A DNA stretch of 64,000 nucleotides from assembly GCF_963921235.1 (NCBI RefSeq), contig NC_086097.1, positions 152,646,001 through 152,710,000 of the forward strand, written 5' to 3'. The notes beneath the pieces are model-generated. The model made no database searches. It was not told where the DNA came from and worked only from the letters and a program-made list of their open reading frames with translations. A program made the position numbers and the translations under genes. The stretch is from Mobula hypostoma. Taxonomy: Eukaryota. Every line of letters begins with the position of its first letter. Position 1 is the stretch's first letter. This document shows, in pieces, positions 1 through 64,000 of this stretch.

Positions 1-110
1 CCAACGAGGCAGAAATATTTATCTTGCACCAGATTGGGTAATGATCACTCCCTACAGTTGCTTCTTGGTACACTAACCAATCACACACTGATGTAATGGA
101 ATTCGATACT

Positions 111-674
111 GTTGTTCGTCCATCACTGGCGTCGATGAGGACCTCGACACCATAATGATGGTGTCGAGACTAGCGCGTGATTTGGATTTAAGTGAGGGAG
201 AGTTGCTCAGCGTCAGCCTCACTCTCTCTTCCCAATTCCCATCTGGATCCAGTGGCAAGACAGAGTCTAGACAGCTGGAGATGGGACCTAGACGCAGTGG
301 ATGACCAGGACGTCTTCTGTGTCTTGTCCTGCTCTATACGTTCCACGACGCTTGCAGAGACCGCCTTCTTGACCGTTGGACCTTCCATTGATCTCGTCCG
401 CTCAATCCGCCGGAGTCTGTCTTCACATGCTGGGATAGACAACTCGCTATCTCACTGAGGGTTTGAGACCCATCGGCTACCCTCACCTGGTTTAGTCGGC
501 TTGTCGAAGCCGTTGCCCGGGTGGCTGCTGTCGCATGCAAACAGCTACGGGGAGCCACAGGTGAGAGCTGAGTGCCAGTTGGGGACCAAAGGTGGACTAA
601 CCACCCTGAAAAGATTGCGACGTGTTCCCCCACCAGAGGTGCTACCCCTCCCTGACACCCCATACACCCCACAC
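111..674 (-). mobile_element. 564-bp non-coding, non-autonomous retroelement (probably RTE-derived, 5'UTR plus 3' end)
   Basis: Clean insertion into the LINE endonuclease ORF, with 'act' on both sides (108-110 and 675-677). On the minus strand the 3' end reads ...gatggacgAACAAC with terminal stem-loops, as in RTE-clade tails. No meaningful ORF. Confidence 0.7.
480..670 (-). ncRNA. candidate HDV-like self-cleaving ribozyme at the 5' end of the 564-bp element
   Basis: Pairings found by eye on the minus strand: P2 cucucaccug/caggugaggg, P3 ggc/gcc, L3 starting ucccc, GGGCA, P4 cggcuu/aagccg, J4/2 acuaa. The candidate P1 GGGGUGU is at the element 5' end. Confidence 0.55.
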
Positions 675-1242
675 ACTAATGTAAGATCAAGCACAGATTC
701 TTTACCTGTATTAACGTCAATTCTAGTACTACTGCCATCATTTAGGCACACTAAATGCTCCTCATCTAGCAACTCCTCTATTACCTGACCATTGATGTCT
801 GTTCTGTCACTCCCCCATGATACATTATGTCCATTAAAATCACCACACCAAACAACGTTACTACTATTCTGCCCTTCTATCTCCTCAAGCTTGTTTAACT
901 CTAGTCTTTTGCATGGATTATAATAATTCACAATCACCAACGCTTTCCTTTCAGCCCATAGTTTTACTACCACATACTCTTGTTCACTTCCTACACCTAG
1001 TATTCTATAAGGAGTACCTTGCTTTACAGAAGTTGCACATCCTCCTCCTCCACCCTCTCTCCTGTCTCGCCTTACTGCCTCATAACCATATAAAACAAAA
1101 TCTAAATTAGGTTTTAACCAGGTCTCCTGGATACACACAACATCTGGCTTTTCTCTCCTACTAGCTATAAACTGCTTGAAATCTTGTCCATTAACAATCA
1201 GGTTTCTTGCATTCCATTGAAGAAGTAGCATTATTAGTAATA

Positions 1243-2407
1243 TCAGCCCACACATACTGTCTCTTGACTTGACTGTACCCTGAGTTCATCGTTTACTTCT
1301 TCCCATTTTAATCCTATCATATCCAAATGGTGCTCTGCAGCTTTCACAATAATCTGAATCCTTTCAGTTTTAGATTTGATTTCGTAAGTTGTATTTACCA
1401 CTCCTGCTATAAAGGTCACCAATTTCTTCTTCTCTATCCATGCATTCTTCTTATCTTGCCTTTCTTTAGCTGCCGCTTGCTCTTTGCTACATCCTCCCTC
1501 ATTCATTTTCTTCTGTCCTGCCAACTTGACTGCCTCAGCATGAGACTTTTTCCTTCACCGTTATCTGCTGCACCTCCACCTCTTTTTTCAACACTTCACA
1601 TCCCCAGTACACTACACTATGGTTACCTCCACAATTACAGCACTTTGGTCTCACTCCCTCTCCACATTTTCCGTATTCATGTTCCCCACCACACCTTGCA
1701 CATCTTCTCTTTCCTTTGCACACTTTGGCCACATGCCCAAACTCCTGGCAATTGAAACACCTCATAGGTTTTGGTATATATTCTCTTACATTGTATCTTA
1801 GAAATCCAAAATATAACTCCGTTGGAGGCACCTTATCCTCAAATTCTACCAGAACTGTTTCAGTCTCCCTTTTCTCTGCTCCCCTTGTCATTCTTTTCAC
1901 ACTCTTCACTGAACTACTCCTCACCCTCAAGTTCTCCAATAGCTCCTTCATATTAACACTGAGGGGAACCCCGGATATCACCCCCTTGCAACCATTGACC
2001 CTTTGTGCTCCAACTCTTACAACCCTGGACACTTTGACTTTCCCAACATTAGTCACCTTCATTGCCTTCTCCATCTGCTCTTCAGTTTTACATCCTATCA
2101 GCAGGTTTCCATCTCCTAAAATTCTTGCAGGGCTTACTTCCCTTACTTCTGATGATTTTTGTTAGCTTAAGCAGATCAATTTTCTTTACTCCCCCTTCCC
2201 CCTCAAATCTTACCACTACATTTAGCAATTTTGCCCTCGGGCCCTTCTCCTCAACTTCTCCTCCCTCACTTTCCAATCCACCTACACTAGACCCACCTCC
2301 TTTCTTTCTCTTCTATCCCATCACCTTCCTGTTCTTAGTCCCTCTCCCACCTCTTCCCACTCAAACTCCATGCTATTGCTGTCACCATCAGTCTCCCTCC
2401 CTGCCAT
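1243..2407 (-). pseudogene. LINE ORF1 gag-like nucleic-acid chaperone (frameshifted)
   Basis: ORF pieces 2088-2276, 1535-2074 and 1243-1524 carry the knuckles CFNCQEFGHVAKVC, CARCGGEHEYGKC and CCNCGGNHSVVYWGC. The start is approximate. Confidence 0.8.
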
Positions 2408-7765: not shown

Positions 7766-9451
7766 TTGATGTTGCAGTGTTCACCGAGTTTGGCAATTAG
7801 CTTGCAGACGTTTCATCACCAGTCGAGGTGATGCCATGAGGTTCAAGCAGTCCAACTGTCATTTCTGATATATTCTTGATGTCAGGGAAGGTCACGCATT
7901 TCAGAACAACGGCTACCCACAGAATTTCATCAGGAGATGCTTACTAAGGAGAGAAATTCATGCAGACCTTATTCAACCTGTAATGAAATACGTGACAAAT
8001 CAAGACGGACCAATTCCTACCAGTAGTAAATGCTAGTGCTCTTGAGAAGGCTTTAAACTAGAATGGAAGAGGGAGTGGAATTTAAATTGCATAACTAAAG
8101 AGAGAAGAACAAGGAAAGAATGAACAGAGAGAACAGTAGAAAGCAAAAACACAAGGAGATTGAGAATGACAGGCAAATTGAGCAACAGTGTAAGTATGAA
8201 TAAATTTTTAAAAGGGCAAGCCTAAAGGAAAATGAAAACAGACAATAAGTCTGTTTAAATACTGTACAGTATGTTAGTACGTAAGAGAGGACTTTTAGTA
8301 TTACCCCTAGGTTAATACAGGCTCAGTGGGCCAATGCAGGTCCAGTTTCAACGTCCCAACATTGAAAATCAGCAATTCCTCCCCAACCCCCAACCCTCTC
8401 AGATTCTTGTCAACCATCTGAGTTTCTCGACCAGATTGTTTATGCTCCAAGTTCCAGTATTTGCAGTCTGTGTCTCAAGGGACCAGATTCTCTTCTGTTC
8501 CAATAAAAGTACGTGGCCTTACTTGGTAATATGATTTGTCAACCTTTATTTTAAAATATCCTCACTCACACTCTAACTAATTGATTTTTCTTCATTTGTC
8601 CTGGATGCACATATTATCTACTGTAGTATTTTAATAGCCCACGTAATAAACTGTGGCCAGTCATCTCCTTAATCGGAAGCACAAAAAATCTGCTAACAAC
8701 CAAGAAACTCAGGATGTTGAGGAACAGGATTAGTCATAATGCAGGCTTTTGACCTGCTGCATGACACACTGAGTACGTCATCAGCAACGCGACATGGGAC
8801 TTCTGTTGACTGGGATGTATATCCAACAGGCCATTGTGGACTAAGTTTAATGGCTCCGCCAGGGTCAGTGAGGTGTCACAGGCTCCAGAGTTAGAGTTCT
8901 ATGCAAGCAGCAGGAGTAAGGTCCAATGGCCCCCAGGGTTTATGAATTAGTGAAACTGGAGTTCGAGGCCTAGTATTCACTTGTTCCGACATCGATGGGT
9001 CTAGAGTTCAAGGCCTGGTTTTCAGTGATTGGTGGGTCCTGGGTTGATGCCAAGGATCAAGGCCCAAGAGCCGAATTAAGATTCTGGAAATTGAGGCCCA
9101 TTGGCCAGAGCCTTGGTCTGAGAATCTCTGTGAGTCCGCTGGGGAAGTCGAAGGCCCAGCATCTGCATGTCCACGTTCAAATACAAGTCCAAGTCCAGGT
9201 CTGATGTGGGTGGTGGCCAAAGAATACAAACTATCTTGGGGTTAGAGGACTGTGCATGTGGGCTTGTTTTGCTGTTGTTTATTGTGTTGTGTTTTGTGCT
9301 GTTCTGCTAAGCATAATAGGCATGTCGGAATGTGTGCCGACACTTGGGGGTCTGCCCCCCCAGTACACCTTTTTGTGAATTGGTTACTAACACACACAAC
9401 ACATTTTACTGTATGCTTCAGTATTCACGTGACAAATAAACATGAATCTTG

Positions 9452-37638: not shown

Positions 37639-38485
37639 ACAACACACTGGAGGAACTCAGCAGGTCGGGCAGCATCCGTGGAAAAGATCGGTCGATGTTT
37701 CGGGCCGGAACCCTTCGTCAGGACTGAAGAGGGAAGGGGCAGAGGCCCTATAAAGAAGGTGGGGGGAGGGCGGGAAGGAGAAGGCTGGTAGGTTCCAGGT
37801 GAAAAACCAGTAAGGGGAAAGTTAAAGAGGTGGGGGAGGGGAAGCAGGGAGGTGATAGGCAGGAAAGGTGAAGAAGGAATAGGGGAAAACACAATGGGTA
37901 GTAGAAGGAGGCGGAACCATGAGGGAGGTGATAGGCATCTGGGGGAGGGGCAGAGTGAGATAGGGATAGGGGAAGGGAGGGGGAGGGAATTACTGGAAGT
38001 TGGAGAATTCTATGTTCATACCAAGGGGCTGGAGACTACCTAGACGGTATATGAGGTGTTGCTCCTCCAACCTGAGTTTAGCCTCATCATGGCAGTAGAG
38101 GAGGCCATGTATGGATCCCTATTTCACTCTGCCCCCTTCCCCAGCTGCCTCTCACTTTCCTCATGGTTCCGCCTTCTTCTACTACCCATCGTGTTTTCCC
38201 CTATTCCTTCTTCACCTTTCTTGCCTTTCACCTCCCTGCTTCCCCTCCCCTACCCCTTTATCTTTCCCTTTACTGGTTTTTCACCTGGAACCTACCAGCC
38301 TTCTCCTTCCCACCCTCCCCCCACCTTCTTTATAGGGCCTCTGCTCCTTCCCTTTACAGTCTTGACGAAGGGTTCTGGCCCAAGCGTTGACTGATCGTTT
38401 TCACGGATGCTGCCCGACCTGCTGAGTTCCTCCAGCATGTTGTGAGCGTTGCTTTGACCCCAGCATCTGCAGAGTATTTTGTGTT
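37639..38485. mobile_element. Penelope-like inverted (palindromic) insertion, second subfamily
   Basis: Minus arm 37639-38112 and plus arm about 38115-38485, each with a hammerhead. 13-bp TSD aaYattacctctt at 37626-37638 and 38486-38498. Confidence 0.92.
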
Positions 38486-38659
38486 AACATTACCTCTTTC
38501 CTGTTGAACTCAATCCGCTGACTAATGTGTGCCAACACACCAAATACACAACCTTATCACATTCTCTGATAAAGACGTTGACACTGATAATTGAATTACT
38601 ATTTCCTAAAACACTCTTGGTCTCTTAATGTCTGTTAGGTCTGGACTCCATGTTTTTCC

Positions 38660-40262
38660 CCAAGCACAACTAATTAGAGGCAACCACATGGGCCCCAGCT
38701 ATGCCTGCCTTTTCATTGGCTATGTGGAACAGTCCGCGTTCCAAGCCTTCCCCGATAATTCTCCCTAAATATTTCTGTACTACACTGATGACAGCATTGG
38801 GGTTGCTTCATGCACCCATACCGAGCTTGTCAATTTCATCGACTTTGTCTCCAACTTCCACGCTGCCCTTAAATTCACTTGGTCCATTTACAATGCCTCT
38901 CTTCCCTTTCTCAATTTTTCTGTCTCCATCTTTGGAAACAAAGTATCTACCAACATCTTTTATGAACCTACAGATTCCCACAGCTATATTGACTATACTT
39001 TTTCCCACCCTGTCTCCTATAAAAATGCCATCCCCTTTTCTCAGTTCATTTGTCTCTGCTGCATCTGTTACCCGGATGAGCCTTTACTTTCCAGGGCAGT
39101 AGATAGTTTAAATCATTCAGCACAGACTAGATGGGCTGAAATCCCTGATTCTGTGCTGTACTTCTCCATGACATTAGAGATGTCTGCTTTCTTCAGATAA
39201 CAGGGCTTCCCTTCTTCGACCATTGCTGGTGGCCTCATCTACATCTGCTCCATTTCCCAGACATCCATGCTCACCTCATCTTCCTCTTGTCCTCACCTAC
39301 CACCCCATGAGACTCCATATCAAACACTTCATTCTCCACAATTTCTGCCATCTTCAACGGGACTCTACCATGAAACATATACTTACCTCACCTCCATTTT
39401 CTGCTTTCCACCGGGATCACTTCCTCCATGATTTTCTTGTTCATTCATCCCTCCCACTAATCTCCATCCTGGCAATTATCCCTGCAATCGACAGAAGTGC
39501 TTCACCTGCCCATTCACTTCTTACTTCACCTCCATTCTGGGCCCCAAACAGATCCTCCAGTGGAGGCAACAATTCACCTGAAAATCTGTTGGGGTTGTCT
39601 ACTGTATCAGTGCTTCCGACGTGGCCTGCTCCACCCTGGTGAGACCCAACGTAGATTGTGGACAACTTTGTCAAGCACCTCCGCTCCATCTACAAAAAGC
39701 AGGATTTCCCACTGGCCAGCCATTTTAATTCCTATCCCCATTCCCATTCTGGTATGTCAGTCCATCGCTTCCACTTCTGCCATGATGAGGCCACTCTCAG
39801 TTTGGAGAAACAACATCTTGTATTCTGTTTAGGTAGCCTCCAACCTGATGACATGAACATTGATTTCTCTAACTTCTGGTTGTTCTCCCCCTTCCCCATT
39901 CTCCAATTCCCCACTCTGGCCTCTTACTTCTTCTCAGCTGCCTATCACCTCCCCATGCTGTTCCTCTTCCTTCCCTTTCTCCCATGGTCCACTGTCCTCT
40001 CCCATTAGATTCTTTCTTCTCCAGCCACCTACCTTTTCCACATCATCTCCCAGCTTCTTACTTCACCTCACTCCCCACCACGCACCTGTCTTCACCTATC
40101 ATCTTCTATCTTAATCTCCTTTCCCTCCTCTCACCTTATCTGTATCTTTCCCCTTCCTTTCCTGTCTTGATGAAGGGTCTCAGCTCAAAATACCGACTGC
40201 TTATACATTTCCATAGGTGTTGCCTTACCTTCTGAGTTCCTGCAGCATTTTGTGCCTGTTCC
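38660..40262 (+). mobile_element. degenerate Penelope-like element (RT C-terminus, GIY-YIG, tail)
   Basis: Co-linear with 58340-59960 (MGPSYACL...SHSYIDY...PLVLTYHP...GETQRRL). Decayed hammerhead at 40163-40199 and a small CR1-tail insert at about 39095-39170. Confidence 0.88.
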
Positions 40263-40271
40263 TTGGCTATG

Positions 40272-41499
40272 TGTCACAATGGGGTGCTGGAAACAGACCC
40301 AAATGCATGACACAGAGACTGAAGTACAAGGAACAGGACTTGACTAGAGTAGGGACGTGACAGGATTCAGGCAAGGAGGAAGGACAAGAACGCAGAGCTG
40401 GGCTAGGGAAAGCAGGACCAGGACTAGGAACCATGGACTAGGAGACAAGGCTTGGACTCCAAGCCCGAGACTGGACAAGGACCAAGAACCTGGGTCTTGC
40501 CTCAGGCTCAGACCCGGAACCAGGCAAGGACATGACATGGCTTCAGGACAGGACATGGCTGGGATCTAGAGGCCTGAGTTTGGAGACAGGCTAGGGTTCT
40601 TGGGGCTGGAGGCCACAGGATCGTGGAGGCTTGGGTTCTTGGAGCTTGGCTGCGGGATCGTTGAGGCTTGGGTTCTTGGAGCTCAGAGACAGACTGGGAA
40701 CTAAACATCAACATAGAGCCGGGACTTATCCTTCGACAAGCCAGGACTCATCTTTAACACGACATTAACATGAGACAGGATAGATCATAGACATAGAGCC
40801 AGGACTTATCCTAAGACAAGCCGGGACTCAACTTCTCCACACCAAGATGGGACAGATCCACCTGTTGGGTAATGGCCAGGCTTACCCAACAGAGGCAAAG
40901 ACAAGACATGTCCTCCCACAGGGCAATGGCAAGATGGACTGACTTACCCCACACAGGTGAGGACAGGACAAGACATGACCCCCTCCATGGGGCACGGCAA
41001 GATGGCCTGACTTGCCCCACAGAGGCAAGGACAAGAAGAGACAAGCACCAAAGAACAACAGATAGTTCCATCTCTGCTCCAGGATAGCTCCAAGTCTCAG
41101 TTCGGCCAGCAACCTCGGCTGGCTACAGAAACAGCCAGATCCCTACCTAGCTCAGAGTGGCTGACAGCCACTCAGCTGGCCCGGGAAACAACCAAATCCT
41201 ACCACAAAGACAGATCTGACTACTGACAGAAAGGATCCATGAGGGGATGGTTCTCCAACACAGCCTAAAGATGGCAATTGGCTGCTCTAGCCTTCCACCA
41301 GCAGGTTGCTCCAAGGGGGACTGACAAGACAAACCAGCAGCCCATACTCAATCCCAAGGCTACGTATATTGCAAGCCCAAAGATGGGAATCAGGTGCCTT
41401 TGATTTAGTCAAACAAGGGACAGCTGGAAGACGCGGAGTCCTGAGTCCACGGACCGGACTGTGAACCGGAATGTGGACTTCACAGACCGGACCTTGGCA
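40272..41499 (-). mobile_element. solo LTR (about 1.23 kb) with internal tandem repeats
   Basis: TGTCA...TGGCA termini and a 5-bp TSD ctatg at 40267-40271 and 41500-41504. Confidence 0.88.
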
Positions 41500-56204: not shown

Positions 56205-58276
56205 ATAAGGGGCTGAAAACTACTCATGATACTCCAAGTGCAATCTGACTAATAAAGCCTCAGCAATACAGCTTTGCTTTTATATTCTAGTCCTTCCAAA
56301 ATGAATTTGCATTTGCCTTCCTTACCACCAACTCAATGTACAAGTTAACCTTCAAGGAACCCGGCATGAGGACTCCCAAGTTCCTTTGCTCCTCTGATTT
56401 CTGAACTTATTCTGTTTTGAAAATAGTCCTTTATTCCTCCCACCAAAGTGCATGACCATACATTTCTCTACACTGTATTACACCCGCTACTTTTTTGTTC
56501 ATTCTCCTAGTCTATCTAAATCCTCTGTAGACTCTGCTTTCTCAGCACTGCATGCCCTTCTACCTATCTTTGTATCGTCTGAAAACTTGGCCATAAAGCC
56601 ATCAATTCCATCATCCAAATCATTAAGGCAACACAGACAAAATGCTGGTGGAACGCAGCAGACCAGGCAGCATCTACAGGAAGAGGTACACTCGAAGTTT
56701 CGGGCTGAGATCCTTCGTCAGGATTAACTGAAAGAAGAGATAGTCAGAGATCTGAAAGTGGGAGGGGGAAGTGGAGATCTGAAATGATAGAAGACAGGAG
56801 GGGAGGGATGAAGCCAAGAGCTGGAAAGTTGATTGGCAAAAGGGATACAAGGCTGGAGAAATGAGAGGATCATGGGACGGGAAGCCTAGGGAGAAAGAAA
56901 GGGGGAGGGGAGCACCAGAGGAAGATATAGTGAGAGAGACAGAGGGAGAAAAAAGAGAAAGGAAGGGGAAAAATTAAAAATAATAATAAACAAACGAACA
57001 AACAAACAAACAAACAAACAAACAAACAAATAAATAAATAAATAAGGGATGGGGTAAGAAGAGGAGGAGGGGCATTAACAGAAGTTAGAGAAGTCAATGT
57101 TCATGCCATCAGGTTAGAGGCTACCCAGATGGAATATAAGGTGTTGTTCCTCCAACCTGAGTGTGGCTTCATCTTTACAGTAGAGGAGGCCATGGATGGA
57201 CATATCAGAATGGGAATGGGACGTGGAATTAAAATGAGTGGCCATTGGGAAATCCTGCTTTCTCTGACGGACAGAGCGTAGGTGTTCAGCGAAACGATCT
57301 CCCAGTCTGCGTCGGGTCTCGCCAATATATAGAAAGCCACATCGGGAGCACCGGACGCAGTATATCACCCCAGCTGACTCACAGGTGAAGTGTCGCCTCA
57401 CCTGGAAGGACTGTCTGGGGCCCTGAATGGTGGTGAGAGAGGAAGTGTAAGGGCATGTGTAGCACTTGTTCCGCTTACAAGGATAAATGCCAGAAGGGAG
57501 ATTGGTGGGAAGGGATGGGGGGGGGATGAATGGACAAGGGAGTCGCATAAGGAGTGATCCCTGTGGAAAGCAGAAGGGGGGGAGGGAAAGATGTGCTTGG
57601 TGGTGGGATCCCGTTGGAGGTGGCGACAGTTACAGAGAATAATATGTTGGACCCGGAGGCTGGTGGGCTGGTAGGTGAGGACGGTGGGGGGCACCCTATC
57701 CCTAGTGGGGTGGCAGGAGGATGGAGTGAGAGGAGATGTGCGTGAAATGGGAGAGATGCATTTGAGAGCAGAGTTGATGCTGGAGGAAGGGAAGCCCTTT
57801 TAAAAAAGGAAGACATCTCCTTGTCCTGGAATGAAAAGTCTTATCAGGTGCAGTGGAGACAGAGGAATTGAGAGAAGGGGATGGCATTTTTGCAAGAGAT
57901 AGGGTGGGAAGAGGAACAATCTCGGTAGCTGTGAGAGTCCGTAGGCTTATATTAGACATCAGTAGATAAGCTGTTGCCAGAGATAGAGAAAGAAAGATCA
58001 AGAAAGGGGAGGGAGGTGTTGGAAATAGAACAGGTATACTTGAGGGCAGGGTGAAAGTTGAAGGCAAAGTTGATGAAGTCAAATGGCTCAGCATGCGTGC
58101 AGGAAGCAGTGCCAATGCAGTTGTCGATGTAGCGAAGGAAAAGTGGGGGACAGATACCAGTATAGGCTTGGAACATGGATTGTTCCACAAAGCCAACAGG
58201 AGAAATTATTAAGAGTAAGGACTAATTCTGCTAGACGGAGGAGAGTGATGGTAGAGGGGAACTGGTTAGGTTTGGA

Positions 58277-59531
58277 ATCCGTCTAGCAGAATTAGTCCTT
58301 ACCCTTAATAATTTCTCCTTTGGCTCCTCCCACTTCCTCCAAACTAAAGGTGTAGCTATGGGCACCCGTATGGGTCCCAGCTATGCCTGCCTTTTTGTTG
58401 GCTTTGTGGAACAATACATATTCCGAGCCTATACTGGTATCTGTCCCCCACTTTTCCTTCGCAACATCGACGACTGCATTGGCGCTGCTTCCTGCACGCA
58501 TGCTGAGCTCGGTGACTTCATTAACTTTGCCTCCAACTTTAACCCTGCCCTCAAATTTACCTGGTCCATTTCCGACACCTCCCTCCCCTTTCTTGATCTT
58601 TCTGTCTCTATCTCTGGCAACAGCTTATCTACTGATGTGTACTATAAGCCTACGGACTCTCACAGCTACCTGGACTATTCCTCTTCTCACCCTGTCTCTT
58701 GCAAAAATGCCACCCCCTTCTCGCAATTCCTCCGTCTCTGCTGTATCTGCTCTCAGGATGAGGCTTTTCATTCCAGGACGAAGGAGATGTCTTCCTTTTT
58801 TAAAGAAATGGGCTTCCTTTCCTCCACCATCAACTCTGCTCTCAAATGCATCTCTCCCATTTCATGCACATCTGCTCTCACCCCATCCTCCTGCCACCCC
58901 ACTAGGGATAGGGTGCCCCCCGTCCTCACCTACCACCCCACTAGCCTCCAGGTCCAACATATTATTCTCCGTAACTTCTGCCACCTCCAACGGGATCCCA
59001 CCACCAAGCAGATCTTTCCCTCCCCCCCCCTTTCTGCTTTCCACAGGAATCACACACTATGTGACTCCCTTGTCCATTTGTCTCCCCCCCATCCCTTCCC
59101 ACCGATCTTCCTCCCGGCACTTATTCTTGTAAGCGGAACAAGTGCTACACATGCCCTTACACTTCCTCTCTCACCACCATTCAGGGCCCCAGACAGTCCT
59201 TCCAGGTGAGGCGAAACTTCACCTGTGAGTCCGCTGGGTGATATACTGCGTCTGGTGCTCCCGATGTGGCCTTCTATATATCGGTGAGACCCGACGCAGA
59301 CTGGGAGACCGTTTCGCTGAACACCTACGCTCTGTCCGCCAGAGAAAGCAGGATCTCCCAGTGACCACTCATTTTAATTCCATGTCCCATTCCCATTCTG
59401 ATATGTCCATCCATGGCCTCCTCTACTGTCAAGATGAAGCCACACTTAGGCTGGATGAACAACACCTTATATTCCGTCTGGGTAGCCTCCAACCTGATAA
59501 CATGTACATTGACTTCTCTAACTTCTGTTAA
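58277..59531 (+). pseudogene. Penelope RT (C-terminal half) plus GIY-YIG endonuclease
   Basis: GVAMGTRMGPSYACLF, RNIDDC, LPFLDL, VYYKPTDSHSYLDY and VIYCVWCSRCGLLYIGETRRRLGDRFAEH, with one frameshift near 59100. Confidence 0.93.
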
Positions 59532-59827
59532 TGCCCCTCCTCCCCTTCTTACCCCATCCCTTATTTATTTATTCTTCTCCTCCCCTCCTTTCTCTTTTTT
59601 CTCCCTCTGTCCCTCTCACTATATCTTCCTCTGGTGCTCCCCTCCCCCTTTCTTCCCCCCTAGGCCTCCCATCCCATGATCCTCTCCCTTCTCCAGCCTT
59701 GTATGGCTTTTGCCAATCAACTGTCCAGCTCTTAGCTCCATCTTTCCCCCTCCTGTCTTCTCCTATCATTTCTGATCTCCCCCTCCCCCTCACACTTTCA
59801 AATCTTTTACTATCTCTTCTTTCAGTT

Positions 59828-59864
59828 AGTCCTGACGAAGGGTCTCGGCCGGAAACGCCGTCTG
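59828..59864 (+). ncRNA. minimal hammerhead ribozyme (Penelope pLTR)
   Basis: agtc CTGACGA agggtctcggccg GAAA cgcc. The cleavage triplet is mutated relative to other copies. Confidence 0.6.
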
Positions 59865-60103
59865 TGCTTCTTCCTATAGATGCTGCCTGGTCTGCTGTGT
59901 TCCACCAGCATTTTGTGTGTGTTGCTTGAATTTCCAGCATCTGCAGATTTCCTCGTGTTTGCGGATCCAAATCATTAATATATAATGTGAAAAGAAGTAG
60001 TCCCTACATCAACCCTTGCGGAACACCACTGGTCACTAGCAGCCAACCACAAAAAGATCTCCTTTACTTCCACTCTTTGTCTTCTGCCAGTCAGCAAATC
60101 TTC

Positions 60104-60130
60104 CAGCACCTGCAGAATTCCTCGTGTTTG
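60104..60130 (+). mobile_element. 27-bp Penelope extreme-3'-tail insertion
   Basis: cagcacctgcagaattcctcgtgtttg matches the PLE terminus and is flanked by a 12-bp TSD cagcRaatcttc at 60092-60103 and 60131-60142. Confidence 0.85.
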
Positions 60131-60949
60131 CAGCGAATCTTCTATCCATTCTTGTAGCTTTCATGTAATACCATGGGCTCTAACTTTGTTTAGCAGTCTC
60201 ATATGCAGCACCTTGTCAAAGGTCCTCTGAAAGTCCAAGTAAACAGCATCCATTTACTCTCCTGGACTTCTTCTGAACTTGATTGGCACTGGTTAAATGC
60301 ATATTGCAGGTAACGGTATGCATCCGATCAAGCTTATTAATTAAAGCAAAGCTAATGCTTATATTTCATTGTGAGGACAGGTCGTGAGTATGCCAAAATC
60401 AGCAGATCTTTTGTAGCTTATCCATAGAGAAAAAAAAACTTCCATCTTTTCAATTCAGATTGTGTTTAAATGCAGCTATCACATATGGAAAGGCAGTGCA
60501 TCATCTAATCCCTTAAAGCCGCTGCTTCTTGTGGTGCTTGTGAATGTGTGACCTATATGTATAATGTACGTGACTATGCACAATACAGTTGGAGAGACTG
60601 GAATGATGAAAATGAACATGTTTTTGCAGTTCTCTAAGCCTTTCAGTAATTCATTATATTCCAGGCACACATACTGTTAGAATGCCAACTCACGCATACA
60701 TTATAGATTGGCAAAAAGAATAAAAGACTCAGTCTCAAAATACAACTGGCCATGTACATGGTACAAACATGAAGATTTATTTGTAAGCTGACAATATTGG
60801 TAAGCAAAAGAGAAAGCTTGAGACATCTACAACTTCATGGAGGAAAAAAAGCAGCAACTAAGTCTAAATTAGTTATATGCACAAGGAGGGGAAGCAACAG
60901 AGCTTGAGAGTACTTTATTTGACCAATCCATTGTCACGGAGAAGGATCA

Positions 60950-62110
60950 AGGATTCAATTTTTTTTACCACATACATTTACATTCATTAGGAATTTGCTG
61001 TGATGTGTTGACACTACAAAATATAGCAATATTCAAAAATTATAAAGAATAAAGAATAATATTTAAGATTCAAGATTCTTTATTTTCATTCTTCTGCACA
61101 CGAGTGTAAAGGAGAACAAAATGATTGTTACTCCAGATCAGATGCAGAAAAAAAAAACACAATAAGCATAAATAACACAATAAAAAAGCACAATAAAAAT
61201 AAATACATACAGTAAGATTAGCTTATATATATATAGACTTTACCTAGAGTAATTCTAACTACTGTACATTAGGTGATTGACAGGAAATAATATAGTAGTG
61301 GTAGTGGGGTGGGTTAATGGGTGGAGGTGTTCCTTAGCTGATGAGTTGGGGAAAGAAATTGTTTTTGAGTCTGGTGGCCCTGGCAAGGGTGCTGTGTATC
61401 CTTTTCTCTGATGTGCGTAGGATAAACAGTCCATGTGTAGGGTGGGTGAAATCTTCATGATATTGCTGGCACATTTATTTACATATGTCATTAATGGCAG
61501 GTAGGCTGATGCTGGTAATGCACTGGGAAGTTTTAACTGTTGTGTTCATTATTGAGGGATAGTGCAGAGCACACCAGGACACCAACATACAGGATATTCA
61601 AATTAACTTTATTGACAATCCTGCTTGTATATTATGTGAACTTCTCACATGTGGGAGCGACTAACTGAGTGGCATAGGAATAATACTACTAACTACCACT
61701 ACTTACTACATTAACTATCCATCGTAGAGCCCTCTTGTCTGCCTGATAGTATAACAATAAATTTAGAAGTCTGGATATGGAAGAAAATGTGTGTAAATAC
61801 ATAAATACCAACATGCATTTACAATGTTAACAACATAATAAAAAGGTAATAGATAGAGGGGGTGGGGTGGTAACGAGAATGGTTATTCAGATTAACTACT
61901 TGAAGGAAGAAATTTTTAACATGTCATGAAGTTTTTTTTTAATAGCCCTATAGTGCTCTTCAGAAGGGATCTCTTGGAAAAGGCAGTTTACCGGGAGGAT
62001 GGTGTCTGTAATGATTTTGCCTGTCTGCTTATTTGTCCTAGACACGTGTAAGTCTTGCAGTGATGGTAAACTACACCCAACGACTACAAGTCTATGCAGA
62101 GTGAAGTCAC
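60950..62110 (-). mobile_element. cluster of old Rex1-type 3' fragments
   Basis: (gattcaa)n-type tails and GCSLPSLQDLHVSRTNKQTGKIITD...LFQEIPS..YRAIK. Confidence 0.65.
61538..61710 (-). mobile_element. short solo LTR (173 bp)
   Basis: TGTTG...CTACA termini, 5-bp TSD ttaac at 61533-61537 and 61711-61715, and AATAAA on the minus strand. Confidence 0.78.
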
Positions 62111-62603
62111 CAAAGATCAAGTTAATGTAGAGTGATCAATGTTAGTGATTAAATACTCCAAGACAGTTAAAGGTATAGGAAAAATGCTAGAGGAGATGGT
62201 AACCCATATAAAGTAGGATGGAGAAAAGGCAACAGCAAGAAAGGAGCTTAATTTTGCAATCTAAGTGCAGTCAGAGGTTTTGAGCTTAAATAAAAGACAG
62301 TGAAAGATAAAACCATCTGTGTAGGTTATATATTTGGCCCTGAAATAATAATGAGAATGTAGAACACAGTATAATGCAATAAATTATAGCCACGTGTAAC
62401 AGGGGCTTTCAATAACCATGGGCAAATTTAAATTATTGCTGCATGAACACTATGTAACAATGTGGAGGACAAATTCATGGTGTGTTTGTGATGATCAGCA
62501 TGTTCAGAAAGCACCTAGAGAAACAAACTGTTTTGTACGTAGCAACACACATAAAAGTTGCTGGTGAACGCAGCAGGCCAGGCAGCATCTCTAGGAAGAG
62601 GTG

Positions 62604-62641
62604 CAGTCGACGTTTCAGGCCGAGACCCTTCGTCAGGACTA
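62604..62641 (-). ncRNA. minimal hammerhead ribozyme (Penelope pLTR), intact core
   Basis: The reverse complement reads agtc CTGACGA agggtctcggcct GAAA cGTC gact. Confidence 0.8.
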
Positions 62642-63933
62642 ACTGAAGGAAGAGTGAGTAAGGGATTTGAAAGTTGGAGGGGGAGGGGGAGATCCAAAAT
62701 GATAGGAGAAGACAGGAGGGGGAGGGATGGAGCCAAGAACTGGACAGGTGATAGGCAAAAGGGATATGAGAGGATCATGGGACAGGAGGTCCGGGAAGAA
62801 AGACAAGGGGGGGGGACCCAGAGGATGGGCAAGGGGTATATTCAGAGGGACAGAGGGAGAAAAAGGAGAGTGAGCGAAAGAATGTGTGTATAAAAATAAG
62901 TAACAGATGGGGTACAAGGGGGAGGTGGGGCATTAGCGGAAGTTAGAGAAGTCGATGTTCATGCCATCAGGTTGGAGGCTACCCAGACGGAATATAAGGT
63001 GTTGATCCTCCAACCTGAGTGTGGCTTCATCTTTACAGTAGAGGAGGCCGTGGATAGACCTATCAGAATGGGAATGGGATGTGGAATTAAAATGTGTGGC
63101 CACTGGGAGATCCTGCTTTCTCTGGCGGACAGAGCGTAGATGTTCAGCAAAGCGGTCTCCCAGTCTGCATCGGGTCTCGCCAATATATAAAAGGCTTACA
63201 CGGATAAGTGCTGGAGGGAGATCAGTGGGGAGGGATGGGGTGGACGAAGTGGTACACATGCCCTTACTCTTCCTCCCTTACCACCATTCAGGGCCCCAAA
63301 CAGTCCTTCCAGGTGAGGCAACACTTCACCTGTGAGTCGGCTGGGGTGATATACTGCGTCCGGTGCTCCCGATGTGGCCTTTTATATATTGGCGAGACCC
63401 GACGCAGACTGGGAGACCGCTTTGCTGAACATCTACGCTCTGTCCACCAGAGAAAGCAGGATCTCCCAGTGGCCACACATTTTAATTCCACATCCCATTC
63501 CCATTCTGACATGTCTATCCACAGCCTCCTCTACTGTAAAGATGAAGCCACACTCAGGTTGGAGGAACAACACCTTATATTCCGTCTGGGAAGCCTCCAA
63601 CCTGATGGCATGAACATCGACTTCTCTAACTTCCGCTAATGCCCCACCTCCCCCTCGTACCCCATCTGTTACTTATTTTTATACACACATTCTTTCTCTC
63701 ACTCTCCTTTTTCTCCCTCTGTCCCTCTGAATATACCCCTTGCCCATCCTCTGGGTCCCCCCTCCCCTTGTCTTTCTTCCTGGACCTCCTGTCCCATGAT
63801 CCTCTCGTATCCCTTTTGCCTATCACCTGTCCAGCTCCTGGCTCCACCCTTCCCCCTCCTGCCTTCTCCTATCATTTTGGATCTCCCCCTCCCCCTCCAA
63901 CTTTCAAATCCCTTACTCAGTCTTCCTTCAGTT

Positions 63934-63970
63934 AGTCCTGACGAAGGGTCTCGGCCTGAAACGTCGACTG
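63934..63970 (+). ncRNA. minimal hammerhead ribozyme (Penelope pLTR), intact core
   Basis: agtc CTGACGA agggtctcggcct GAAA cGTC gact, with helix I agtc/gact and a vestigial helix III. Confidence 0.8.
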
Positions 63971-64000
63971 CACCTTTTCCTAGGGATGCTGCCTGGCCTG

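Follow-up and report, generated by a model that had tools for sequence, protein, structure and literature searches.

Retrotransposons of the RTE clade carry HDV-like ribozymes and form bipartite elements (PMC5786205; PMC6765202, each for the part available), and in the available part of PMC5786205 RTE is one of four clades that form such elements and one of six with 5' ribozymes. The bipartite RTEs described there (RTESINE1/2, WALLSI3, MAR4_MD, Bov-A and RTE-N2_Lch) consist of an RTE 5' end and 3' end with no ORF. R2 ribozymes have, according to the part of PMC3774820 at hand, a 7-bp P1 and conserved P1.1, P3 and L3 nucleotides; they vary in J1/2 and P4, and P1.1, P3 and L3 make up a conserved 15-nt block. 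In drz-Agam-2-1 of Anopheles gambiae, a structured J1/2 is closed by P1.2, linkers are short and P2 is extended to 12 bp, and P1.2 and P2 together pinch P1 against P2 in an activating layout (PMC4908430, in part). In the design of searches, L3 has been taken to be an invariable element of the HDV active site, 7-8 nt long: the published descriptors specify an L3 of 7-8 nt with the form TYYHCG-N(0-1)-Y, a J1/2 of at most 51 nt in two RNAmotif versions and a P3' joined directly to P1' (PMC4870747 supplement).

We analysed a 64,000-nucleotide stretch of the Mobula hypostoma genome, hereafter the window. On its minus strand lies what is probably a worn copy of a high-copy mini-element, composed of an RTE 5' UTR and 3' end, whose first 190 nt would fold as a large HDV-like ribozyme and whose intact copies would likely be cut before G670. 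The family resembles the RTE 5'-end ribozymes in the order of its fold, its place at the first base of the element, its clade and its presumed release from a co-transcript (PMC5786205; PMC6765202, in the parts available), and differs from them in that its L3 is 26-29 nt long and contains a hairpin for which a docking site downstream is predicted, an arrangement that Ruminski et al. 2011 may also show. It shares its two-ended build without an ORF with the bipartite RTEs, and neither its ribozyme fold nor the 5'-3' stem at its junction is described in the available part of PMC5786205. With drz-Agam-2-1 it has in common the J1/2 closed by P1.2, the short linkers and the 12-bp P2; unlike here, the accessible text of PMC4908430 mentions no L3 insertion, and cleavage is shown there and predicted here. 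The 7-bp P1 and the conserved P1.1, P3 and L3 nucleotides recall R2, in which the variation lies elsewhere (PMC3774820, in part). The features, with homologous loci (L006, L012, L014 and L016) that are described below, are as follows.

111 to 670, minus strand: whole non-coding bipartite RTE-derived element of 560 nt, 5' UTR part (670-158) joined to 3' end (153-111)
664 to 670, minus strand: P1 5' strand GGGGUGU, with G670 as predicted G1 (cut site); seven of seven pairs with ACACCCC in L006, L012, L014 and L016
652 to 661, minus strand: second heptamer (661-655) and P1.2 5' arm (660-652) closing J1/2, from MFE and consensus folds
569 to 663, minus strand: structured J1/2 domain, 95 nt, with the P1.2 3' arm at 578-570, from the consensus fold
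557 to 568, minus strand: P2 5' strand (first noted as 567-558); one both-sided and one one-sided change among four homologs
546 to 556, minus strand: P3 5' strand (556-554) and canonical L3 part UCCCCGUA (553-546), with a TYYHCG start
527 to 545, minus strand: hairpin inserted in L3, arms 545-541 and 531-527, loop 540-532 the predicted docking strand, from stem and docking scores
519 to 525, minus strand: P3' GCC (525-523) and shortened P1' ACCC (522-519), ACACCCC in relatives
497 to 518, minus strand: GG of P1.1 (518-517), J1.1/4 GCAA and P4 (512-507 with 502-497), P4 paired in 24 of 24 cells
492 to 496, minus strand: J4/2 ACUAA with the catalytic-position C at 495, from contig comparison
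479 to 491, minus strand: P2 3' strand (first noted as 489-480)
423 to 430, minus strand: GCAUGUGA, conserved, predicted partner of the L3 hairpin loop, from duplex scoring and alignment
142 to 169, minus strand: 12-bp stem at the junction of the two halves, 169-158 with 153-142, from a shuffled-arm test
111 to 141, minus strand: RTE-type 3' end with an (AAC) tail, resembling the 3' ends of L012 and L006
671 to 677, minus strand: target duplication AGT (677-675, repeated at 110-108) and extra GTGT (674-671), from the contig joint and the host frame
675 to 1285, continuing at 109 to 2, minus strand: host site, the endonuclease part of ORF2 in a LINE unrelated to the element, from Pfam

The original prediction had read an HDV-like fold from the sequence, and each of its motifs was found at the coordinates given for it on the minus strand when the sequence was checked again. 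The order P1, P2, P3, L3, P3', P1', P1.1, P4, J4/2 and P2' runs across positions 670-479 of the window. P2 comprises 12 bp with one bulged C (568-557 paired to 491-479), P1.1 pairs C552-C551 with the GG at 518-517, GGGCAA occupies 518-513, and C495 lies within CUAA, a CNRA-type J4/2 present in all homologs. By HDV numbering, we take 553-546 to be the normal L3, 552-551/518-517 to be P1.1 and 495 to be the catalytic-position C; GGGCAAC and G-C-N-A-A presumably stand here as in the genomic HDV ribozyme. The loose order alone carries no meaning, since shuffling does not make it rarer: cores without P1 and with a P2 of at least 6 bp and a P4 of at least 4 bp number 15 in the window, and 30 dinucleotide shuffles average 15.4. 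With P2 of at least 10 bp and P4 of at least 6 bp, thresholds picked with the locus already known, the single core in the window is this locus and one of 30 shuffles contains such a core; with the L3 hairpin required as well, none of the 30 does. Single-strand MFE folding, a model that excludes pseudoknots, adds weak support (z of -2.3 for 476-570 and of -1.2 for 476-610). Rfam gave no HDV-family match at gathering score across the window, nor at E-value limits of 5-10 in positions 1-1500 of the window or in three intact homolog loci.

Metagenomes were searched with a pattern that fixed the P3 5' strand, UCC, P3', P1' and GG, and of the 18 matching loci six were homologous to the element by blastn and 12 were chance matches that were dropped before counting. 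Homologs with the same helices are only 68-77% identical. Prokaryote genomes gave five matches, none of them homologous, and the core pattern had none in viral contigs, where no relative of the L012 protein was found and none of 120 heptamer matches was followed downstream by a partner. A descriptor allowing an L3 of up to 40 nt and demanding a P1 of at least 6 bp is passed by L006, L012, L014 and L016 (four of the six homologs), all with a 7-bp P1, and two of these four lie in elements with an endonuclease-type ORF; the same long-L3 descriptor finds four chance cores in 137 unrelated loci. With L3 set to 7-9 nt, none of seven sequences passes. The proposed double-pseudoknot order of the HDV family is thus recovered in relatives when L3 may be long, and the hairpin in L3, suspected from the outset to be atypical, is so: the family's L3 of 26-29 nt compares with 7-8 nt published, and this L3 and a J1/2 of about 95-105 nt both fall outside the published descriptor ranges. 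The TYYHCG start is present in the window and in L012, L014, L003 and L017; L006 and L016 have TCCAAG. An L3 variant reading UCCAAGUA instead of UCCCCGUA (550-549) occurs in about 17% of contig depth in sequencing run X1 and up to about 75% in run X12; it is the variant of L006 and L016 and departs from the published TYYHCG.

ACACCCC occurs in all six metagenome homologs, though the search pattern required it, and the P1 5' heptamer, which lay outside the pattern, stands at the 5' end of four of the six. The expected P1 partner of 6-7 bp before GGGCA therefore exists in the family, with 7 bp to ACACCCC in four homologs and ACACCCC in the contigs. Pairs were counted on these four; the window was omitted because MAFFT misplaces it at P3'/P1', and L003 and L017 were omitted as degenerate. 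Among 142 cells 98.6% are paired (39-49% in slid controls), with both-sided changes in one P2 pair and two P4 pairs. When the window is included, two of the six P4 pairs show both-sided change, and one pair appears as C-G, G-C and U-A. P1, P3 and P1.1 are invariant across homologs, their 3' strands being fixed by the search pattern, and so provide no covariation; among about four lineages, both-sided changes are seen in P2, P4 and J1/2. Shuffling equalled the pairing and covariation score in 3-4 of 500 cases and the number of both-sided pairs in 28 of 500, counts that are weak because the alignment represents no more than about four independent lineages, L006 and L016 being 99% identical. U20, C21-C22, the GG, the J4/2 C and the CNRA motif are found in all four intact homologs, the first three fixed by the pattern and J4/2 not.

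Two GGGGUGU heptamers had been reported at the 5' start of the element; they lie at 670-664 and 661-655, and contig ends cluster at 664-674. Of 15 contig pieces that run into the 5' flank, taken from listings of the longest pieces, 13 have their end at 664-674, one at 661 and one at 652. The second heptamer pairs to the strand immediately before P2 and thereby forms P1.2, which appears in the J1/2 MFE of five of five sequences and in the RNAalifold consensus, with 95.8% of its cells paired. J1/2 has 24 consensus pairs, eight of which show both-sided change in at least one of four sequences. In folds computed before P1' exists, the first heptamer has an unpaired value of 0.25 in the window, 0.35 in L006, 0.99 in L012 and 0.66 in L014, and the second is mostly paired in four of four isolated folds (unpaired 0.06-0.29). 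Against the P1' of L014, the first heptamer matches throughout and the second fails at its last base. Since the second heptamer is taken by P1.2, the predicted folds suggest that intact copies are likely cut just before G670.

The window copy differs from the majority of contig depth at 17 positions, plus small gaps. Four runs have 8, 7, 4 and 1 contigs, respectively, with GGT inserted behind 520, which restores ACACCCC, and contigs that are clipped at 521 read on as GTGTGGCC, the full P1' partner; because most contigs are clipped at P1', the insertion counts do not equal the share of family copies. Together with the homologs, these contigs bear out the suggestion that P1' is shortened here (accc) and complete in relatives. 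Position 496 is A in the window copy and G in about 99% of contig depth (G74 to A), and the contig rows listed show no variant at 495. In the descriptor scan the P1 of the window copy is limited to a 4-bp GGGU/ACCC helix, three nucleotides of P1' being missing and 3-4 bp of P1 remaining, with an energy of -4.9 kcal/mol against -11.8 in L012. R2 ribozymes typically have a P1 of 6-7 bp, and a single P1 mismatch has been linked to loss of cleavage (PMC3774820, in the part available). From the loss of three P1' nucleotides and the change of G74 to A, the window copy is likely a worn, inactive one, a state that had been raised as a possibility from the sequence. An inner hairpin of J1/2 is disrupted at 616-614, where the copy departs from the family majority at three consecutive positions, perhaps as a subfamily mark or through one complex mutation. 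The same runs hold a second family, visible as loose contig ends at 521, 574 and 594, with a common core and different J1/2, J1.1/4 and P4; by eye its P4 is CCGCUU/AGGCGG and its P1' the full ACACCCC.

The L3 hairpin and one further base lie on the 3' side of an intact canonical 8-nt L3, before P3'. A stem of at least 5 bp can be formed in seven of seven sequences, irregularly in L014, and shows no both-sided change. We propose that its loop docks on a downstream site, as predicted from pairing with a GCRUGU motif 45-55 nt past P2, which is reached across two short hairpins (about 474-432). Both the stem and the docking pairs were scored by script and not on the alignment. Six consecutive pairs are available in seven of seven sequences, the site is the top duplex site in six of seven, and 1-19 of 1000 shuffled loops do equally well or better. 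The L006 family shows one both-sided change, U-A to C-G, and its loop binds the other targets less well by about 5 kcal/mol; GCAUGC is palindromic, and loop and target could therefore be a plain repeat in most lineages. The docking pairs are retained in L003 and L017 despite a degenerate P1 5' strand, P2 and P4. These two loci belong to a derivative family that lacks the 5' heptamers and keeps the L3 hairpin and docking site. Neither an L3 insertion nor this element was found in the literature searched; the supplement of PMC5786205, covered in part and mostly by motif, yielded no report of such an insertion, and the available part of PMC10879173 holds nothing on L3. An HDV-like ribozyme on an RTE is already known, and the L3 hairpin may be new, subject to the figures of Ruminski 2011 and of Webb and Luptak 2011, which may show one.

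L012, which comes from the contig of another organism, is a full element: the double heptamer and a 5' UTR of about 860 nt precede a frame of 1096 aa that encodes endonuclease and reverse transcriptase, and a short tail follows. From a second element of this type, L014 covers the 5' part and runs into a long ORF; L006 is bipartite like the window element, and L016 is a 5' piece 99% identical to L006. By blastn the window element is 68-75% identical to the 5' UTRs of L012 and L014. It combines the 5' UTR and 3' end of an autonomous element and has no ORF, as a bipartite non-autonomous RTE would, and L012 offers the autonomous relative, with one ORF for endonuclease and reverse transcriptase and a short 3' UTR. 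Window segments 310-168 and 145-111 resemble segments of RTE-1_PSi and RTE-3_AMi in the available part of the PMC5786205 supplement, and judged by this likeness of its sequence to named RTE ends, which was assessed by eye, the element is of the RTE clade. The L012 protein search had no named RTE protein among the 120 matches listed.

The stem at the junction of the two halves matches a pairing between the 5' UTR and the 3' end of the full-length element, and a 5'-3' stem is therefore predicted in the element RNA. No shuffle in 1000 was as good as the junction stem of the window. Its counterpart in L012 comprises 8 bp across about 3.5 kb, at the best-scoring site of the 864-nt 5' UTR (0 of 1000 shuffled arms as good), and that in L006 comprises 11 bp of different sequence (4 of 1000). 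RTE-1_PSi and RTE-3_AMi show, by eye, a 9-bp complementarity at the place of the junction stem (PMC5786205, in the part available). In L012 the 3' arm (8939-8946) overlaps the stop codon of the ORF, and after the 3' end comes a second, short copy of it. Just upstream of the L006 element, a long inverted repeat (2558-2676) has weak matches to microRNA models, all below gathering score.

In order to rationalise these features on the molecular level, we propose that transcription of the element would start at a host or LINE promoter upstream of it. ACACCCC would then pair with the first GGGGUGU as P1, and the second heptamer would go into P1.2, which together with the 12-bp P2 would pinch P1 against P2. 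With C495 as the predicted catalyst, the product would be a unit-length RNA starting at G1; such release from a co-transcript is what the known RTE, R2 and L1Tc ribozymes suggest (PMC6765202, in part). The L3 hairpin is predicted to point away from the core; pairing of its loop with the GCAUGU that lies about 50 nt beyond P2 would create a third pseudoknot, by which the fold would be braced or timed. Finally, the RTE protein of a full-length element may copy the RNA in trans from its 3' tail, with the 5'-3' stem holding the ends together.

The most serious competitor of this proposal, in our judgement unlikely, holds that the fold is real and non-catalytic throughout the lineage, the L3 hairpin disabling cleavage and the structure being retained for protein binding or for a role in a promoter or in translation. 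L3 belongs to the catalytic core (PMC4908430, in the part available), published descriptors permit no more than 7-8 nt there, and the degenerate L003 and L017 keep both hairpin and target, all of which would fit such a lineage; against it stand the conservation of U20, C21-C22, GG, J4/2 C and CNRA in four of four intact homologs, of which the first three are pattern-fixed, and the coincidence of element 5' ends with the predicted G1. That the HDV-like order is a mere chance pattern in a G+C-rich repeat we find scarcely credible, and it is already largely refuted: the equal frequency of loose cores in shuffles and window and the silence of Rfam would suit it, but the strong core is unique in the window and the same helices recur with compensatory changes in homologs as divergent as those above.

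If the ribozyme is real, G661 in the second heptamer might be the cut site in place of the first heptamer, or either of the two might serve. In L006, L012 and L016 each of them is fully complementary to ACACCCC, and isolated folds of the window and L006 partly trap the first; we nevertheless hold this to be quite improbable, because the second heptamer is mostly paired in four of four isolated folds with P1.2 in the consensus, is mismatched in L014, and is not where 13 of the 15 listed 5' ends lie (664-674), and because the first heptamer would be lost after one round of copying. More improbable still is that the window copy is active through another register, with P1 formed by 606-600/525-519 (7 bp), P3 by GGC/GCU (545-543) closing a canonical 8-nt L3, and the remainder placed between P3' and P1'. 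Such a P1 would have -12.1 kcal/mol against -4.9 for the damaged one, and GGC/GCU or GGC/GUU can be formed in all homologs. However, a local hairpin (-9.1 kcal/mol) holds its strand 606-600, the family has C where this copy has U603, the alternative P3 is weaker (-0.9 vs -2.6), and published descriptors place P1' directly after P3'. We therefore retain a cut before G670 in intact copies and a window copy that is likely dead.

A wider reading, which we regard as possible and rather doubtful, is that an unrecognised class of HDV-like ribozymes with three pseudoknots, missed by descriptors and Rfam, occurs in the RTEs of many animals. In this class the L3 hairpin would dock about 50 nt beyond the ribozyme and thereby hold back cleavage until the downstream UTR exists, and another long-range helix would link the two ends of the RNA and determine where the mini-elements are joined. 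Should cleavage occur in these RNAs, a large number of animal ribozymes will have been overlooked, extra domains can naturally be accommodated on the 3' side of L3, and the helix of loop and target would be a peripheral contact of a kind without description in the literature examined. Why RTEs give rise to two-ended mini-elements and most LINE clades do not is left unanswered in the available part of PMC5786205, and the 5'-3' stem provides an explanation that can be tested. As for the locus, it is a damaged copy of an ordinary sort.

The claim of a non-coding mobile element is supported by dispersed copies, a target duplication of 3 nt only and a simple-repeat tail. Contigs at 80% likeness number 11592, 9199 and 490 in three sequencing runs, and their depth is confined to about 110-670, a pile-up that marks the element as a high-copy repeat. 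Those departing from the element at 671 number 110, 113 and 116 in runs X1, X5 and X9. Parts of 60-720 are contained in 20 of 24 listed sequencing runs (12 studies), none of which contains half; the runs were available as contigs only, and their label 'RNA' is a guess. The small shares in runs X19 and X20 carry no information on habitat. Neither blastn nor nhmmer found a second copy of the element within the window, and as to an autonomous partner the window holds distant LINE pieces only.

The insertion lies in the endonuclease of the host LINE (Pfam PF14529, E 1.8e-14; PF03372, E 9e-13), whose protein has no significant match to that of L012. Uninterrupted contigs from three runs join 107 to 675, with three letters that fit either side, and the host reading frame runs as LDLTL up to 677 and VSNSI from 109 on the minus strand; joint and frame together indicate a 3-nt duplication and four extra 5' letters. 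These letters, GTGT (674-671, minus strand), lie between the target duplication and G670 and repeat the heptamer end. A 15-nt near-repeat (82-96, 670-684) was considered as the target duplication and rejected, since the uninterrupted contigs retain 97-107 and join 107 to 675. Reading these contigs as an empty orthologous site was also rejected, since they reach a depth of 507 in X1 and a LINE frame spans the site; a collapsed host-LINE family is their likelier source, and they therefore give no date for the insertion. The host LINE (window 2-2300, minus strand) is little decayed, with an ORF1 with zinc knuckles at about 2161-1243 and the ORF2 endonuclease from about 1231, and presumably resembles an I/Nimb-type element. 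The mini-element has the same sense as this LINE, which could supply its co-transcript. Elsewhere in the window, 56600-64000 and 37700-40300 hold several inverted pairs belonging to a repeat family of about 1 kb, with arms of at most 442 nt that are at most 97% complementary.
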